Positions 21,628 to 62,645 of a stretch of DNA of 64,000 nt are shown here, piece by piece (within the stretch, counting starts at the first letter, position 1; every line of letters starts with the position of its first letter). The notes under the pieces are model-generated. The model did not search any database. It was not told where the DNA came from and worked only from the letters and a program-made list of their open reading frames with translations. Both the position numbers and the translations under genes were made by a program. The stretch is taken from positions 32,001 through 96,000 of the forward strand of contig CAVPOM010000011.1 in the NCBI GenBank assembly GCA_963707025.1. The letters are read 5' to 3'. The DNA is from an uncultured Verrucomicrobiae bacterium. GTDB lineage: Bacteria > Verrucomicrobiota > Verrucomicrobiia > Limisphaerales > Palsa-1400.

Positions 21628-22041
21628 CTACCTCCGCCCGCCCGCCGTATGCAGATCAATTGGCACGTATTTGGCGAATCGGTCAAAGTCCGTGTCCGTC
21701 GTGAAAATCCTCATCCGGTGGCGCACGGCCACCGCGCAAATAAGCAAATCGGTTGAGGTGCCTTGAACGCCCTCACTGCGGCAGATGTTGTAAAAGCTGG
21801 CGGCGGTTTCGTCATCCTCCTCATCCGTCAAAAGGTTGGGGTGGAATCGAAGATATTCCTTTAGTTGGTTGAAACGATCCTGCGGCTGCGCGCCCGACAG
21901 CAACTCCTGCCGAATAGGACCGAGCAACTGGATGACATCCGCGCGGAAAAGTTTGGCCACCTCCTTGCAGATCGGCTCATCGCCTGGCCGATCGCGCCGG
22001 AGGAATTGCGCCCAGACGCAGGTGTCTATGATGACTCTCAC
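21628..22041 (-). CDS. vapC: VapC PIN-domain toxin
   Basis: VIIDTCVW, ELLSG, DLLICAVA, IFTTDTDF. Confidence 0.88.
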   Translation of the reverse strand: MRVIIDTCVWAQFLRRDRPGDEPICKEVAKLFRADVIQLLGPIRQELLSGAQPQDRFNQLKEYLRFHPNLLTDEEDDETAASFYNICRSEGVQGTSTDLLICAVAVRHRMRIFTTDTDFDRFAKYVPIDLHTAGGRR

Positions 22042-22238
22042 TCTTTGGCCCGCATCCTTTTATAGTCCCATGCCGGATCAAAATCAATCTTGCCGGCAAG
22101 CTCCAGAATGTGCAGCCGGCGGTGGCGCTGAACGAATTCCTCCAGCGCCGCGTTAAGGGCTTGCTGTTTGGTCTTGAAATTGCCGAGCTTTACGGCTTGC
22201 TCGACCATCTTGTCATTCAACTTCACCTTTGTCGGCAT
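22038..22238 (-). CDS. vapB: VapB antitoxin
   Basis: 66 aa, FKTKQQALNAALEEFVQR..GKIDFD; overlaps the vapC start. Confidence 0.85.
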   Translation of the reverse strand: MPTKVKLNDKMVEQAVKLGNFKTKQQALNAALEEFVQRHRRLHILELAGKIDFDPAWDYKRMRAKE

Positions 22239-22375: not shown

Positions 22376-22426
22376 GTGGACAATGTGTATGGCGACCGGA
22401 ACCTGGTCTGCGCCTGTCAAACATAA
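22371..22426 (+). pseudogene. Diverged duplicate of the gcvP 3' end (21066..21121)
   Basis: [17 protein letters not shown] versus [17 protein letters not shown], 49/56 nt identical. Confidence 0.9.
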
Positions 22427-24693
22427 TTGACGCGCAGCAAAGCCTTGAGCCGTTCGCGGAAAAACGGGCTGGCCGACGACAGGATCAAAAACGGCAGCAG
22501 CATCGCGCAAGTGAACATGGCCATAAACAGTCCGATCGCAAGGAACGGGCCGAAACCAGTGCTGAAAGGCAACCCCAGCGGGCCCCATAGATACCACGCC
22601 GCCGACACCGCGACCCAGACGGCCACCACGGACAAGAAAAGCCACACGCCCAGCCGGAACGCGCCCCCGCGCCCCCGGCTGGCCAGCCCGCCCAAAACGA
22701 AAGCGGCGGCGACCACCAAGGCCAGCACCGCCAGCGGACCCAGCAACGGCATCCCCAACGCCCCGGCGCCGGTCGTGGCCGAAAATTGTCGCGGGTCGAA
22801 AAGGCCCAGGATTGGCTCGACTTCCTGGTCCCAACCCGCCATGGCCGCAAGGCTGAAAACGATAACCACCGCCAAGAGCAACCAGCCGACGAGGAAACCG
22901 CCGAAGCGAGGGATGCCCCCAAGCCAGGATGCCAGCAACCAGAGCGCGGCCAACCCAAACGCCAGCGCGACGGGAACATCGCACAGCACCTCAAACGCCC
23001 CCTTGGGCATACCCGCGCTCGAGCTTTCAATTCCCAATTCCAGGTAATGCCACCCGGCTGCCAAGCCGGCCAGCGGCAGCCAAATCCACCAAGCGCGCCA
23101 GCCGCGATTGGGTTTAAGCGCCAGCAAAGCCAGGATGGCCAGCCATGGCAGCAAAGGCGCCATCGTGCCCTCTGCCATCCAATCGCAAGTTACCGGCGGA
23201 CCTTCCGTGGCGCCCAGCCCGCCCAAACCCCACGAAGCTGCGATTTGCAGTTCGCCTCCCGTCCTGGAGGGTACTCGCCATGAGTACGCGCAGAAGCCGT
23301 CTCAGCCAAATTCAAATTGGCCCGCCCCGATTTCTTTCCCCGACTTGCGGACGGTAAATTGCGGAGCAATCCGGTTGGTCCCTTGCCACACTCTGTATTC
23401 TCCGCCGCTGGCGCCGATTAATCGGTGGCTGAGAATCAACTGCCGCCCCTGACGGGTGGCGGAGACGGAATTAGTCAACGGCCCTCCCACGGCTAAAACC
23501 GCGGGCCGCTGCTCATCCACCGCGATGGCCTGCTCAGGCGACGGCGGACTTAACACCGGCAGTTTCGCCCCGGTGACTTCCTCCAGCATGTTCGCCTTCC
23601 CGGTTTGCGGCAGGCCGAAATTGAAGTAGGCTCGCGTCTGGCCCTGCTGGAGCCAGACGCGATAAGGATGGTATCGGTCGGTCGGCACTTTCACGATGCC
23701 CGGAGGATGGGCCAGCACCACCACGTACTTTTCTCCCGTCAGGACGAGGCGTTCAATGAAGCTGCCGGTGATTCGCAATTCGCCCAGCGCGGCTGGTTGT
23801 TCGGTCAGCCGCAACGCCAGTTTGTCTTCAGGTCCTTGAGGCTCGGCGTTCCAATCCAATAAGCAGGCGTGTCCCTCGAAGAACACCCTTGGGGAAAAGG
23901 CGAACGTGTCCGACGCCCTGACCACACAGTTCTGCTCTGTCCAGGGAATCACGTACACGCCACCCGGCTCGCTGCAGGCCAGGAACGGCCGGTTCCGCTC
24001 TTCCCAGGGACGCAGCAACAATTGGCCGTGGCGGAAGGAGCCAGGCTCGTCTGACATATTCTGCACCAACCCCGCCTGCCAATCATGGCCTTGCAGAGTC
24101 AACTTGCCTTGCCAACAGGAGCGCAAGGCCGCATTGCAGAGCGGCTGCCCCGGCCGCCGGGCGGAGTCCAGGGAGAAACGCAGGTCCACCAGCATCGGCG
24201 CGCCGCCGGAGGAGGCGGGAAACGACAAGTGGATGTTGGTGAACATCTGGTTCAGGAAAGTCGGTTCTGACGACCACATGGCCTGCCCCGAAAACATCCC
24301 GGCAGGATCCTCCGCCCAATCCGGGTTCCGCTTCAGACCGAGGCAGAGTTTTTTCGCGCCGCATTGCCAGAGGAAAGGAATGGCGTTGCCTGGGTTGGCG
24401 CCGAACTTCAATACTCCGCGCACGACCGGACCGGCAGCCAGCGCCGGCTCTTTTGGGAATGGAACAGACCGGCGCTCGATGGGAACATCCCGGAACAGGA
24501 ATTGGTAACTCGTCTCGTGATACTCCAACGCAACGGTCGTCGTGTTGGAGGAAGGGGAACTGGCAGGAACAGAATCAGCGGCGCAAAGAGCATGGCCCGA
24601 ACAAAGCGCCACCAGCAGCACCGGGGTCAGCCAAGCCACTCCGGCGTTTCCCAGCCAGCGCCACGAAAAACAGCCAGTCCTCCGTTTTGCCAT
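22417..24693 (-). CDS. Putative selenoprotein (~758 aa): exported N-domain, in-frame TGA at 23302..23304, C-terminal multi-TM domain
   Basis: ORFs 23302..24765 and 22417..23226 share a frame and are separated by one TGA: QFEFG*DGFCAYSWRVP; hairpin 23271..23287; paralog at 60526. Confidence 0.75.
23262..23304 (-). promoter_or_regulatory. SECIS-like hairpin after the in-frame UGA
   Basis: mRNA UGA-GACGGC-UUCUG-CGC-GUACUC-AUGGC-GAGUAC-CCUC-CAGGA. Confidence 0.65.
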
Positions 24694-31940: not shown

Positions 31941-32642
31941 TCACGCTTCCCTCAATCGGTGGTGATCTCCATCATGGCCTTTTCCAAATCGAGGCACAAC
32001 TGGGCGCGGGCCTCCGCCGTGGCGTCGCGCGGCACCGCGAAGGGCTGGCCGAAACGCAGGACGCAGCGGGCAAAGGGCAGCGGGATTTGGAACTTGTCCC
32101 AGCTTCGAAATGGTGATTTTGCGACGCGCGTAATTGGACACCGGGATAATCGGACGGCCGGTCACCTGGGCCAGGTGGATGATGCCCTCCTGCACTTTGT
32201 AGGCCGGACCGCGCGGTCCGTCCGGGGTGATGGCGATGCTGTAGTTTCTTTCCATCCAGGTGGTCGCCTCCAACAGCGCCTGCGCCCCGCGCCGGCTGGC
32301 CGAACCCCGGATCGGCACCACCCCGAATGGTTCCACCAGGCTGGCCAGAAACGACCCGTCCCGGCTGGCGCTAATCATGGCGCACAGGCAGGCGCACGGC
32401 CATTTCTCGCGCACAAAATCGCCATTCGCCGCCATGGCCAGCGCCAGCCGGTTGTGCCAGGTGCAAAAAATCACCGGCCCCGGCACAACGGGACAGAGGT
32501 CGCCGTCCTGCCAATGCAGGCGCCAGGTTTTCATCATCAGGCGCATGAAGGCCAGCACCACGGCCGCCGCCAGCTTGCGCCGCCACGTCAAGGGGCGCGG
32601 CACTACCGGCCCGCCCGCCTTCTGGTTGGTTGACACCGCCAT
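31941..32642 (-). CDS. DUF374 / lysophospholipid acyltransferase family protein, probable frameshift near 32100
   Basis: WHNR, ISASRDG, RGSASRRG, ITPDGPRGP. Confidence 0.8.
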   Translation of the reverse strand: MAVSTNQKAGGPVVPRPLTWRRKLAAAVVLAFMRLMMKTWRLHWQDGDLCPVVPGPVIFCTWHNRLALAMAANGDFVREKWPCACLCAMISASRDGSFLASLVEPFGVVPIRGSASRRGAQALLEATTWMERNYSIAITPDGPRGPAYKVQEGIIHLAQVTGRPIIPVSNYARRKITISKLGQVPNPAALCPLRPAFRPALRGAARRHGGGPRPVVPRFGKGHDGDHHRLREA

Positions 32643-58400: not shown

Positions 58401-58842
58401 GGATTTGCTCGGCGAGCAAAAAAGGCGCGCGCAGCACTGGCTGGCCGCCGCCAACTTCAAGGGCGATTTTCAGGAGATGAGCGTCCGCGCTTTTCAGCGA
58501 AATGACCTTTTACTCGGCGCTGTGCACTGCGAAAAGCTGGGCCGGAAGCGGAGGCGAAAAAACTTTTGCGCGACTTGCTGGCCTACGCGCAAAAGCGTTG
58601 CAAAAGTCGCCGGCCAAAATTGATTACTTCGCCACGTCGCTGCCGACCATGCTGCTGTTCGAGGATGATTTGCCATTCCGCCAGGAAACAACCGCGCTGT
58701 TTTTGCAGGCGCAGGCGCGGCTGGGCCTGGGGCAAAAAGCGAAGGCGCAGGCGCTTTTGCGGAAAGTTTTGCGGCGCGACCCGAACCACGCGCTGGCGGC
58801 GGATTTGTGGGCGGGTTGGCCCCGCGGAAGGGAGCCGCATGA
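55408..58842 (+). CDS. DUF5107 + TPR protein, multiple apparent frameshifts
   Basis: VYQGSSGRVYPLP, LPEIGGRI, GGIEFNWPQHHRP, PGKKQWTWG, YIEIMAGVYTDNQPDF, TPRs, IDYFATSLP across several frames. Confidence 0.8.
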
Positions 58843-60265
58843 CGGCGGTGGCTCCAAAAGACGACCCGCCTCTCAAGGCCGAATACAATTTCGGTTACAT
58901 CTGGCTCATTTCCGTGACGCCGCGCTTGGGCGGGCTGTTGTTCGGCTACGACTGGGTGGTCATTGGCGGGGCGAAGCCGTTTTTCGAGCGGTACTTTCAC
59001 CTGGCCAAAGCCGCGCAATCCGGCTGGGCGAACAGTTGCGCGCTCATCGGCTGTCTGGCGGGCGCGCTCGTCGCCGGCGCGTTGAGCGACAAGTTCGGCC
59101 GGAAAAGATTGTTGATCGCTTCGGCGTTTTTGTTCGCGCGTCACCTCGCTGGGCAACGCGCTGGCGCCGAATGTTTTCCATTTTCGTCGCGTGGCGGATG
59201 CTGGGCGGCGTGGCCATCGGCCTGGCTTCGAACCTTTCGCCGATGTATATCGCCGAAATCGCCCCGGCGCGGATGCGCGGCAAACTGGTCTCCATCAACC
59301 AGCTCACCATCGTCATCGGCGTGCTGGCGGCGCAACTGATCAACTGGTCGCTCGTGCGCCATCTGCCGCCGGGCGCGACGGATGAGTTCATCGTCAATTC
59401 CTGGTATGGCCAGTCCGGCTGGCGCTGGATGTTTGCCCTCACCGCCATTCCTGCGGCGTTGTTTTTTGCCGGCATGTTTTTCGTTCCCGAAAGCCCGCGC
59501 TGGCTGGCCAAAAACGGCAAGCCCGAACAGGCCCGCGCCGTCCTGCAAAAAATCGGCGGGGCGAGCTTACGCGGGTCAGCGCCGCTCCGGGAAATCGAGG
59601 CGACGCTGGTGAACGAAACCGAAAAGGTGGATTTCCGCGAACTGCTGCAGCCGAGGATGAGAAAGGTGCTGGTGCTGGGCGTCGTGCTGGCCGTGTTCCA
59701 GCAATGGTGCGGCATCAACGTCATTTTCAATTACGCCGAGGAGATTTTCAGGGCCGCCGGCTACGACATTTCCACCGTGCTGAAAAACATCGCCTGGACC
59801 GGCTCGGTCAACCTGGCGTTCACCTTTGTCGCGCTGGGCGTGGTGGACCGCCGCGGGCGGCGTCCGCTGATGCTGTTCGGCGCGGCGGGGCTGGCGGTCA
59901 TCTACACGGCGATCGAGTTTTTGTTATCACGCGCGGCGTGCAGGGATGGCCGGTGCTGCTGCTCGTGCTGGCGGCCATCGCCTGTTATTCCATGTCGCTG
60001 GCGCCGGTGACGTGGGTGGTGATTTCGGAAATCTTTCCCGAATCGCATCCGCGGCGCGGCCATGGCCGTCGCCGTGGCGGCGCTGTGGCTGGCCTGTTTC
60101 ATCCTGACTTACACGTTCCCGATTTTGAAGGACAAGCTCGGTCCGGCGGGCACGTTCTGGCTCTACGCCGCCATCTGCGCACTGGGCCTGCTTTTCATCT
60201 GGAAGAAACTGCCCGAAACCAAGGGGCGGACGCTGGAACAGATCGAAAAGGAATTGGTGAAATAG
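58839..60265 (+). CDS. Sugar porter MFS transporter, apparent frameshifts
   Basis: GGLLFGYD, DKFGRK, PMYIAEIAP, PESPRWL, QQWCGIN, PETKG. Confidence 0.88.
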
Positions 60266-60272
60266 GGGGCGG

Positions 60273-60443
60273 ATCTTGACACTGCTGCCGGCGTCTGGCG
60301 AAAGAATGCCATAGGAGTGCGCCCGTCCTCGGGCGCAGCCGCGTGGGAAACACGGCGCGCCGGTGATTTTCCTGAGCACCCAAACCATCCCTGGCTTGCT
60401 GCGGCCGGGGACGGCCGCACTCCGCCGGCAGCAGTGTCAAGAT
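60273..60443. repeat. 171-bp element with perfect 21-bp terminal inverted repeats
   Basis: ATCTTGACACTGCTGCCGGCG ... CGCCGGCAGCAGTGTCAAGAT. Confidence 0.75.
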
Positions 60444-60470
60444 GCGCGTTGAAATAGGTGCGTTTAGGGA

Positions 60471-60525: not shown

Positions 60526-62031
60526 ATGAAAAAGTCACTATTTTTATGCGGAGCGCTCTTGCTGGCGGTTCCGGGTCTTTCGCCGGCAGCGGACTATCCC
60601 CTGGTATTCAAGACCCTCGATGCCCAGCAGGCCATGTCCTTTCCTTCCGGCTCCACCATTTACGCCATGATGCAGGCCGCCAAACCGGCTGGCCTCCACA
60701 AGGCGCCGCCGGCCGTCTCCCAGCACCCGCTCTATGGCCAGATTGCGGCCGGAAGCGACCAACTCCTGTGCCGGCTGGATGAATCCAAAGGCACCGGCCA
60801 GGGCTATGACCGGCTGATCGTGGACGTGAATCAGAATGGGGACCTGACGGACGACCCGGTGGTCAACCTGGTCCCGTCCGCCATGCATCAAGGAGTGGTC
60901 TCCGCGCCGCAGCAATTGCTCTTTGGGCCGATTCAGGCGCCGGACAATCTTAAGATTGGGGCGGATCGCCCCGTCTTTTTCGCCCAGGTTTACATGTTCA
61001 TGGCAGCGGGGATCTCGGCTGCCGCCATGCCCAATGCCACCGTCGCCGAGATTCTCGTCCGGCCGGGCTGGTATTTGGAAGCCACGGTGAACGTGGATGG
61101 CAAGGAGCACAAGGTGGGCTTGGTGGACGGGAACTGCAATTTCCGCATCGGGGACCCGGAACGGCCCGTGACTTCCCGGACTGGGGTCAATGGCAGCGAA
61201 ACCAGTTGGTATTTCCAGGGCGGCGACCGTTTCCTGATGGACTGGGGCCGTGCAGGAGGCATGCAAAGCTCCGTTCTGGAAGACCAATCCCGTTCCTTCG
61301 GCCCATTGCTTTATCTGGGCGCCAAGCCCTATAAAGTCGCCGTGGCCGCTGACAGCAAATCGCTGTCGCTGGCCCCCTGGACCGAGCCGCTGGCGGAGTT
61401 GGCCATGCAACCGGGCGGGGAGCACATCAGCAGCTTGGAGCTGGCTTGGGAGAAAGCCCCTGGCGACTGGGTGCTGCTGCAGCCCGGCGTCGAAAACGGC
61501 AAGGCCAAAGTGCCGCCGGGCAACTATCGGCTTTATTCCTTGGTCTTGAAAGGCAAAACCGCGGCCGGCGATTCCCTGATCATGAGCGGCATCAAGCGCG
61601 CTCCGGAAGGCACCGTCAAGGCCGTGGCCGGGGAAACCACGCCCTTGAAGTGCGGCGCGCCGCTGCAAATCAACTTGAGTTCCGTGCCCACGCGCGCTGC
61701 CGGCGGCTTGTTGCAGGGTCTCTTCGGTCAGGCCGGCCCTGCGCAGACCATCCAGGCTTCCATCCTCGGCGCCGGAGGGGAGACCTATTCAGCCCCTCAA
61801 CTGATGGGCGCCAGGGGAATGGGGCGCCCGCCGACCGGCCCGACTTACGCCGTCCTGACAACGGAAGGCAAACAGGTGGACTCGGGCAATCTGGAGTATG
61901 GCTGAGGCGGCGTTTGTTCGCACTCATGGCGAGTGCCCCAAGATTTGTCCGGCAAGAAAGTCACCATCAAAGCCGAGTTCGATCTGAAACCGATTGACAC
62001 GGTGAGCAAATCCATCGAAGTGCAGTTATAG
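60526..62031 (+). CDS. Putative exported selenoprotein (501 aa), in-frame TGA at 61903..61905
   Basis: Signal peptide; NLEYG*GGVCSHSWRVPQDLSGKKVTIKAEFDLKPIDTVSKSIEVQL then TAG at 62029..62031; motif shared with the 22417..24693 paralog. Confidence 0.75.
61903..61942 (+). promoter_or_regulatory. SECIS-like hairpin after the in-frame UGA
   Basis: UGA-GGCGGCG-UUUG-UUC-GCACUC-AUGGC-GAGUGC-CC-CAAG. Confidence 0.65.
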
Positions 62032-62309
62032 AAGCAGATGGCAATTGCCAGATGCGTCCGCCCCGGACTGCCAGGGGGGCAGTCCTGCTCATTTGCCGTG
62101 TCGAGCCTGCGGCTCGCAATCGGCGCAGAGCGCCGGCGCGGCAACGAATTTGGACACTACCGAAGTTAGGGCGTTTTCAAGAAAACCGTAGCCGCAGCAC
62201 GCGGTAGGGTCCCGGCAGGCCGGGATTGCCCGCCGCGGCGCGCACGGAGTGCGCGCCCTACCTCCCTCGTTTCGGCTACATCATTTCTTAAACCGCTCTT
62301 GCGTGCTTT

Positions 62310-62645
62310 CTATTTGTCGCCTTCCTCTTTTTCCTTTTCTGGTTTTTCTTGTGCCGCCTTTTCGTGCTCGACGTTTACGACGGTGCCTGCGATCGCATCC
62401 ACATTGACCTCGGTGATGTCCTTTGAATCCGGGGTGGTGAAGCAAAACGACCAGATCAGTTTGCCGTGTTCCCGTTCCAGTTCGCATTCCTTGTAGGTGC
62501 CGTTCGGCACCATGGTGAGGGCGGTGGCCTGAGCCTGAGGCTTGCTGATTTTCGCCTCCGCTTCAAGCTGGGATTCATTCTCCGTGGCGCAGCCGGCGAG
62601 GAAGCCGGCGGCCAGGATCGAACAAAGAGTTAATCGCATTTTCAC
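62310..62645 (-). CDS. PepSY-domain lipoprotein
   Basis: Lipobox LAGC; AKISKPQAQATAL, ELEREHGKLIWS, EVNVDAIAG. Confidence 0.75.
   Translation of the reverse strand: MKMRLTLCSILAAGFLAGCATENESQLEAEAKISKPQAQATALTMVPNGTYKECELEREHGKLIWSFCFTTPDSKDITEVNVDAIAGTVVNVEHEKAAQEKPEKEKEEGDK

Follow-up and report, generated by a model that had tools for sequence, protein, structure and literature searches.

Two homologous genes in a 64,000-nt stretch of DNA from an uncultured Verrucomicrobiae bacterium (positions 32001–96000 of contig C11 in a 6.96-Mb, 18-contig assembly; hereafter the window) seem to stop at the same place. In both gene A (forward strand) and gene B (reverse strand), the reading frame meets a TGA triplet within a common motif and stays open beyond it (Table 1). 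The locus therefore raises the question whether this UGA ends translation or is decoded as selenocysteine (Sec). An earlier note on this DNA had proposed that the two genes encode signal-peptide-bearing selenoproteins with a UxxxC motif. Comparison of sequences across genomes supported this proposal through the conservation of the TGA, a covarying hairpin at the distance of a Sec insertion sequence (SECIS) and the co-occurrence of the family with Sec genes. It is predicted with high confidence that the in-frame UGA of genes A and B is read as Sec.

Genes A and B showed 23% identity overall, and the paired segments from which their homology had been deduced (KVPPGNY/KVPTDRY, CGAPL/VGGPL and ILGAGGETY/LIGASGGEY) were all found. 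Their similarity ran on past the TGA in frame, with a Cys four residues later in both, as the earlier note had described. Read through, gene A gave ...GNLEYG-U-GGVCSHSWRVPQDLSGKKVTIKAEFDLKPIDTVSKSIEVQL and gene B gave ...GQFEFG-U-DGFCAYSWRVP, so that E[FY]G-U-xGxC-x[HY]SWRVP is common to both around the in-frame TGA. The 41 open codons noted past the TGA of gene A were confirmed by reading the open reading frame (ORF), since 41 sense codons lie between this TGA and the terminal TAG. The frame of gene B stays open for 294 codons past its TGA, which the earlier note had not mentioned.

The TGA was found to be conserved far beyond these two genes. A six-frame motif scan of the genome recovered five copies, all five with TGA: genes A and B, which are stand-alone copies within the window, and three copies on contig C17, namely a B-like long form, an A-like short form and a third copy, paralog E. 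When 41 related genomes were searched with a profile built from four full-length paralogs, 29 of the 31 strongest matches reached the TGA column, and all 29 had one TGA. The matches stopping short of the column were one at a contig end (G005:C14) and one covering the N-terminal part only (in G024), which was left out of the counts. Direct reading of the loci from related genomes gave 26 distinct copies, all with TGA. An evenly drawn phylum sample of 400 genomes added 12 further genomes from seven families, with 19 matches, each of which had one TGA. In a gap-free alignment of 60 nt from 45 copies and 24 genomes (alignment A6), the column was TGA in 44 copies and TGT in one; a 46th copy (L064) was left out because its motif has lost a codon and its hairpin is unclear. 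The common motif of the copies was [FY]G-U-xGxC-xxSWRxP, and the Cys four residues past the Sec column was present in 43 of the 45. The protein databases gave a complementary picture. Among the best 120 database relatives of gene A, 115 terminate at E[FY]G, and every one with a name is called "hypothetical protein". A profile search of 1.84 billion representatives returned 2418 matches at E ≤ 0.001 and 422 at E ≤ 1e-10; among the best 150 cluster representatives, 122 end exactly at the column and 26 read through.

These data bear on the explanation that the TGAs result from sequencing errors or, in pseudogenes, from recent nonsense mutations. Indel errors do abound in the assembly: both rpoB and rpoC are broken over many frame segments (G000:C6:393346–401325), and paralog E is frameshifted ∼35 nt ahead of its TGA. 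The explanation was nevertheless refuted by the cross-genome conservation of the TGA (44/45 copies, 24 genomes); moreover, most database relatives end at the column, and the assembly errors seen are indels, not substitutions. Parts of gene A were found in six public DNA runs from two studies, no RNA runs being listed. Contigs from four of these runs carry parts of gene A without indels relative to the window, and none of them spans 61903–61905. With five paralogs and 44 of the 45 copies keeping the TGA, the chance of an error or a decayed gene, which had been called unlikely from two copies, can be regarded as negligible. TGA was also the commonest stop of long ORFs in the genome (1860 of 3317), which indicated that the genetic code is standard, with no genome-wide recoding of TGA.

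A 6-bp hairpin begins 14 nt past the TGA. Columns 30–35 of alignment A6 pair with columns 41–46 in 270 of 270 cells of the 45 copies. Changes on both sides were found in five of the six pairs (54 cells), which none of 500 shuffles matched, and sliding the partner by 1–3 columns lowered the pairing to 30–62% of cells. Between subfamilies the stem sequence differs completely, with its register kept (GCACUC/GAGUGC, GUACUC/GAGUAC, GCUCUC/GGGAGC, GGCCAC/GUGGCC and GGUAUUCC/GGAAUACC); between genes A and B themselves, the second pair is altered on both sides, from C-G to U-A. The encoded residues shift with the stem (H..V, Y..V, L..E and AT..G), and synonymous covariation was observed as well (GUG versus GUA, both Val). 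Because the stem changes while keeping its register and synonymous sites covary, it was concluded that selection acts at the RNA level and that the pattern does not reflect protein conservation alone.

The hairpin matches most of the published bacterial SECIS (bSECIS) model. As given in the portion of the review PMC13188914 that was available, this model has a stem of 4–16 bp, a loop of 3–9 nt, a distance of 16–37 nt from the UGA, a minimum free energy (MFE) of ≤ −7.5 kcal/mol and a G within the first two apical-loop positions. The hairpin, with a stem of 6–8 bp, a loop of 3–5 nt containing GG and 20 nt from the UGA to the loop, lies within these dimensions. The 48 nt from the UGA had an MFE of ≤ −7.5 kcal/mol in 45/45 rows; the 21-nt stretch centred on the hairpin folded at −6.9 to −15.4 kcal/mol and reached this limit in 34 of 45 (gene A, columns 28–48 of A6, −9.1 kcal/mol). 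The loops of the 45 copies were AUGGC (28), GUGGC (5), AUGGA (5), GGGUC (3), CGGCG (2) and CGGGC (2), with a G at the first or second position in 12 rows (GUGGC, GGGUC, CGGCG and CGGGC). Another hairpin, which includes the UGA and was proposed by RNAalifold from five sequences, was rejected: 85% of its cells pair in the 45 copies, but 428 of 500 shuffles equalled this, and its pairs did not covary. An Rfam scan around the TGA returned chance-level rows only (E 2.8–9.1).

It might still be that the UGA ends translation, the downstream ORF being separate or dead, or that an ordinary tRNA reads through it, with the hairpin serving for pausing or mRNA stability. Gene callers do end the proteins at the UGA, and relatives with Gly or other sense codons (see below) imply that other residues at the column are compatible with the fold. 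However, these sense-codon relatives run straight through the column, and the stretch beyond the TGA behaves as coding sequence. Across copies, 41 to 309 in-frame codons follow the TGA, with no start codon needed. Variation at codon positions 1/2/3 downstream of the hairpin was 0.25/0.17/0.30 for the short forms and 0.33/0.26/0.48 for the long forms, compared with 0.25/0.20/0.34 upstream. Since it runs position 2 < position 1 < position 3, as it does upstream, the downstream stretch was judged to be coding. Conservation of the TGA plus downstream coding, by which the earlier note had wished to see its proposal supported, was thus found among homologs (44/45 copies, 24 genomes). The AlphaFold2 model of the gene A protein, made with 73 sequences, was all-beta and multi-domain, with a mean predicted local distance difference test (pLDDT) score of 88 and a predicted template modelling score of 0.84. 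Sec460 was located in a turn between strands 450–455 and 464–469. Strands 464–469, 478–487 and 491–500 lie past Sec460, within an immunoglobulin (Ig)-like sandwich, and a product ending at the TGA would therefore lose three strands of a confidently modelled domain. Together with the covarying hairpin at SECIS distance and the confinement of the family to genomes with Sec genes, described next, these results make termination or ordinary readthrough improbable.

The machinery for Sec insertion, for which the earlier note had suggested looking, is present in the genome: selA, selB and selD stand together on contig C12, and a tRNA-Sec with anticodon TCA scored 72.9 bits. Among the 41 related genomes, Sec genes were found in 11/11 with a verified copy of the family (selA in eight, a tRNA-Sec of 74–76 bits in three) and in 8/29 without the family. 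In the 400-genome phylum sample, selA was found in 12/12 genomes with the family versus 10/388 without; in these counts related genomes are not independent, the carriers spanning at least eight families. Physical linkage was also frequent. A tRNA-Sec lies on the same contig, ∼0.3–8 kb from the family genes, in five genomes (G000, the present one, G003, G008, G016 and G021); selD, selB and selA lie 8–14 kb from them in G016; and selA directly adjoins a family gene in G415 and G302. In the present genome the stop of the A-like short form on C17 lies ∼320 nt upstream of tRNA-Sec. A tRNA-Sec directly downstream of the short gene did not hold as a rule, because ARAGORN found 0 tRNA in 21 other loci with ∼1.5 kb flanks; outside this genome the linkage was seen at ∼4–8 kb instead. 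It was also observed that the selD-like gene (AIRS, AIRS_C) of G016, at L081:13672–15453 (−) and adjoining selB and selA, carries a C-terminal carboxymuconolactone decarboxylase (CMD) domain.

The features of the two genes are collected in Table 1. The N-terminus of the gene A protein shows a basic end, a hydrophobic core and small residues ahead of the predicted cut, with pLDDT of 47–57 over residues 1–20. A paralog 41% identical to gene B has the same layout, including the C-terminal hydrophobic domain, which had no Pfam or NCBIfam match.

Table 1. Positions (window coordinates) of genes A and B and of their observed and predicted elements
Feature	Position	Strand	Basis
Gene A, short soluble form, 501 codons including predicted Sec460; start ATG 60526, terminal stop TAG 62029–62031	60526..62031	+	ORF reading
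Gene A in-frame TGA, codon 460, predicted to be read as Sec460	61903..61905	+	TGA column of the 45-copy alignment
Gene A predicted signal peptide, MKKSLFLCGALLLAVPGLSPAA	60526..60591	+	Inferred from sequence alone
Gene A Cys464 (TGT), U-x-x-x-C partner	61915..61917	+	Column Cys in 43/45 rows of alignment A6
Gene A SECIS-like hairpin GCACUC-AUGGC-GAGUGC	61920..61936	+	Stem 61920–25 with 61931–36, loop 61926–30
Gene A C-terminal Ig-like beta-sandwich, ∼residues 378–501 (predicted)	61657..62028	+	AlphaFold2 model, fold search
Gene B, long membrane-anchored form (predicted), 758 codons including predicted Sec464, plus stop; start ATG 24693, terminal stop TGA 22419–22417	22417..24693	−	ORF reading
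Gene B in-frame TGA, codon 464, predicted to be read as Sec464	23302..23304	−	ORF reading
Gene B predicted signal peptide or N-terminal anchor, ∼39 residues	24577..24693	−	Inferred from sequence only
Gene B Cys468 (TGC), four residues past Sec	23290..23292	−	Sequence
Gene B SECIS-like hairpin GUACUC-AUGGC-GAGUAC	23271..23287	−	Sequence, alignment
Gene B C-terminal hydrophobic domain, ∼7 predicted membrane helices (counted by eye)	22420..23181	−	Made only on TGA read-through

In most genomes the family genes form part of a cassette. The long and short genes stand in tandem in G003, G008, G016, G021 and G010, followed by a CarboxypepD_reg-repeat protein of 1085–1903 aa, which is ∼1100 aa in four of these five genomes; the ∼1100-aa protein has DUF4198 and CarboxypepD_reg matches. 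In G020 it is a 307-aa CarboxypepD_reg protein that follows the tandem pair. Other cassette neighbours were tRNA-Sec, a Fer4_5 membrane 4Fe-4S protein and an S41 peptidase, with a BlaR1/BlaI pair as well in G003. In 5/5 genomes examined, a small membrane protein ending in ...TPCPT-U-x-x-stop was conserved in position and sequence. In the present genome (contig C17, L023:9543–9920, −) it lies between tRNA-Sec and the Fer4_5 gene and ends ...AKTPCPT-TGA-2 codons-stop; its counterparts are on L079, L080, L081 and L082. This C-P-T-U protein probably represents a second family of selenoproteins, in which a C-x-x-U motif lies three residues from the end. Inside the cassette of G016, a 1133-aa ORF at L081:8679–12077 (−) combines sigma-70 regions 2 and 4 with CarboxypepD_reg repeats; it may consist of two genes. 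No metal-resistance or sulfur-oxidation (sox) genes were seen in the neighbourhoods examined.

The following course is proposed for the two genes. The UGA is most likely recoded to Sec by SelB and tRNA-Sec, directed by the hairpin inside the coding sequence through its 6–8 bp stem and its GG-containing apical loop, 20 nt from the UGA. The proteins, predicted to be all-beta, would be exported via their signal peptides, with Sec carried by a loop rich in glycine, [FY]G-U-[GSD]G-x-C, that lies between strands of the final Ig-like domain, and Cys four residues later. Outside the cytoplasm, Sec and Cys could form a redox-active selenenylsulfide. The A type would be soluble and the B type tethered by about seven membrane helices, and the Fer4_5 and C-P-T-U neighbours are candidate electron partners. 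We infer such an extracytoplasmic redox site on several grounds: the predicted signal peptides, the U-x-x-x-C motif kept among the copies, the neighbouring iron-sulfur and C-x-x-U proteins and a Cys-form relative, P0172, which carries a fused Redoxin/AhpC-TSA domain (E 3.8e-10). That the Sec/Cys site is a redox catalyst is a serious candidate reading and the one we favour, though with reserve.

A number of observations weigh against reading these genes as redox selenoproteins, and they are gathered here. In 33 of the 45 loops (AUGGC and AUGGA), GG stands at positions 3–4, off the bSECIS rule. The copies L054 (Phe) and L067 (Leu) keep the TGA without the Cys four residues later, as does L064, outside the alignment. 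In L054 this concerns a long-form gene (510–760) with Phe (TTT) at the Cys position and a frame break just upstream. The generic Ig-like sandwich is uninformative on chemistry. The selA, selB and selD genes of the assembly are each broken over frames. Since rpoB and rpoC are broken likewise, these breaks were attributed to indel errors; those of copy E and of the gene for a major facilitator superfamily (MFS) transporter immediately upstream of gene A (window 58502–60265), which is broken between two frames, are probably assembly artefacts too, not marks of pseudogenes. A same-genus genome has both selA and copy E intact, each in a single frame. A Pirellulales bin with the Cys form had no selA, the bin being fragmentary (3.1 Mb).

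The sense codons at the Sec column count on the same side. In most selenoprotein families, relatives carry Cys at the Sec column. Here, the 26 read-through representatives among the best 150 had Gly in six, Leu in four, Ser in three, Pro in three, Trp in two, Arg in two and Cys in two (P0172 and P0197), and Thr, Gln, Glu and a gap in one each. Because so few of them have Cys, the case for a catalytic redox residue is weakened. At the DNA level, the TGT (Cys) copy is the short-form gene on L054, which has an intact hairpin and adjoins the long-form gene with TGA. Three metagenome loci carry a true GGA (Gly) at the column; they were confirmed from 230 pattern matches and are too few for statistics. 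Decay of the hairpin has begun in two of the three. On one metagenome contig, tandem long-form paralogs (L090:62 and L090:1496) have one TGA and one GGA, the hairpin of the Gly copy having a mismatch. Of the observations by which the earlier note would have its proposal judged, Cys homologs, which would support it, and Gly, Arg or Trp at the column, which would refute it, were each found to some extent. Cys homologs exist but are rare, most sense-codon relatives being non-Cys, and the other residues occur in a minority (26 of 150 reading through versus 122 ending at the column), with Gly encoded by a real GGA. In a quick tree of 137 domain segments, the sense-codon forms were scattered among TGA forms, with 11 changes needed, of which well-supported branches force only two. 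Sec thus appears to have been replaced repeatedly, mostly by non-Cys residues, which is unusual, and the tree is too poorly resolved for losses to be counted or oriented. Gly-containing homologs have been reported for another selenoprotein, planctomycete FmdB, in the available part of PMC4807772.

This replacement pattern would suit a ligand or carrier site that can be lost better than a fold-critical catalytic residue. The family might accordingly consist of true selenoproteins whose Sec-Cys loop is a soft-metal or metalloid site (Hg, Cu(I), Cd or As), or a covalent carrier arm for sulfur or selenium like that of SoxY. A glycine-rich G-U-G-G loop on an Ig-like domain and the ∼1100-aa DUF4198/CarboxypepD_reg protein of the cassette also point this way, as do SoxYZ (2oxh_A, E 0.076) and a SoxZ-like structure (1v8h, E 0.047) among weak Foldseek rows. 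However, no Pfam match to SoxY, SoxZ or metal-binding families was found at E ≤ 1. Fold searches with the full model and the C-terminal domain, which barely probed the N-terminal 370 residues, gave generic Ig/Fn3/MG-like matches (best Z 9.2–9.4) with no stand-out, and Foldseek with the C-terminal domain gave 0 matches at E ≤ 0.001. The absence of metal-resistance and sulfur-oxidation genes from the neighbourhoods examined also speaks against this role, and the Redoxin fusion of P0172 favours thiol redox chemistry. A binding or carrier site is a real possibility, though the less likely one.

Whichever chemistry applies to the predicted Sec residue, the family could not be assigned to a known one, in agreement with the earlier note. 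With both read-through proteins, no Pfam-A family was found at E ≤ 1, and NCBIfam release 20.0, which has models for most listed selenoprotein families, gave a sole row at E 0.16 (11 bits versus a cut-off of 386). ESM Atlas neighbours were unnamed clusters only, from Planctomycetota and Verrucomicrobiota. No description of the family was found in the literature, where candidate lists and supplementary tables outside the scope of the search may name members. The available text of the 2026 review PMC13188914 has 0 occurrences of Verrucomicrobi-, Planctomycet-, signal peptide, UxxxC or Ig-like. Taken together, the evidence supports a widespread, uncatalogued bacterial selenoprotein family with predicted secreted and membrane-anchored forms. 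Its unusual traits are the Ig-like scaffold, the predicted extracytoplasmic location, the multiple paralogs, the linkage to sel genes and the replacement of Sec mostly by residues other than Cys.

The archetype of SelB/bSECIS-dependent selenoprotein genes is E. coli fdhF. The present genes resemble such genes in the in-frame UGA, the downstream hairpin within coding sequence, the presence of selA, selB, selD and selC in the genome and the truncated database entries. They differ from the model in the loop, with its G's at positions 3–4 in 33/45 copies, and in their mostly non-Cys sense-codon relatives, and the protein has no relation to the selenoprotein families listed. Selenoprotein families have been recognized from database truncations before, as in the accessible parts of the deep-Sep study (PMC12013277) and of the Haft preprint (10.1101/2022.07.06.499078). 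The present family, too, is seen as Sec-cut proteins and was recognized by downstream coding, neighbourhood and co-occurrence with the Sec trait. Unlike the families in those parts of the two sources, which are covered by Pfam or NCBIfam models or contain named domains, it has none, and it is exported (predicted), all-beta and found in genomes labelled Verrucomicrobia and Planctomycetota.

Redox selenoproteins of the thioredoxin fold with CxxU or UxxC fill many rows of the family table in the available text of PMC13188914. The present proteins are like these in pairing Sec with a nearby Cys and in having one Cys-form relative with a Redoxin domain. They are unlike them in the U-x-x-x-C spacing and in its place on a loop of an Ig-like sandwich; a thioredoxin fold with CxxU or UxxC was not found in the all-beta model. 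The sulfur-carrier protein SoxY bears a GGCGG arm at its C-terminal end. By analogy, the present proteins may share with SoxY an Ig-like sandwich and a glycine-rich motif (G-U-G-G versus G-G-C-G-G) whose reactive chalcogen residue acts outside the cytoplasm. Unlike SoxY, the motif is internal and followed by three strands, no sequence match and weak generic fold rows only were obtained, and the neighbourhoods examined showed no sox genes.

If the prediction is true, a large selenoprotein family (422 representatives at E ≤ 1e-10) would be added to those known, and Sec would be used outside the cytoplasm on an Ig-like scaffold. Many database entries that end at the UGA would need correction, the long-form ones lacking the whole membrane domain. 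The replacement pattern, with Gly and others instead of Cys, bears on the gain and loss of Sec sites, and the family, being tightly linked to selC and selA, offers a good way into the question why these bacteria of soil and freshwater retain the Sec trait. Speculatively, the family, the C-P-T-U protein and the Fer4_5 protein beside tRNA-Sec might constitute an unknown selenium-dependent redox or chalcogen system at the outer face of the cytoplasmic membrane, in which Sec sits on the Ig-like scaffold in place of a thioredoxin fold and Gly paralogs act as non-reactive partners. Such a system could chiefly account for the retention of the Sec machinery in these Verrucomicrobiota and Planctomycetota lineages. 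We offer this tentatively.

Two further observations concern the surroundings of genes A and B in the window. Just downstream of gene B (21628–22238, −), two small overlapping ORFs, the second PIN-like, resemble a toxin-antitoxin pair when their translations are judged by eye. On either side of gene A lie multi-copy interspersed repeats (60270–60447 and 62032–62310), the upstream one ∼178 nt long with inverted ends. Searched by blastn against their own genome, they gave 52 and 76 matches, respectively. They look like miniature mobile elements, which might be the reason why gene A sits away from the cassette.

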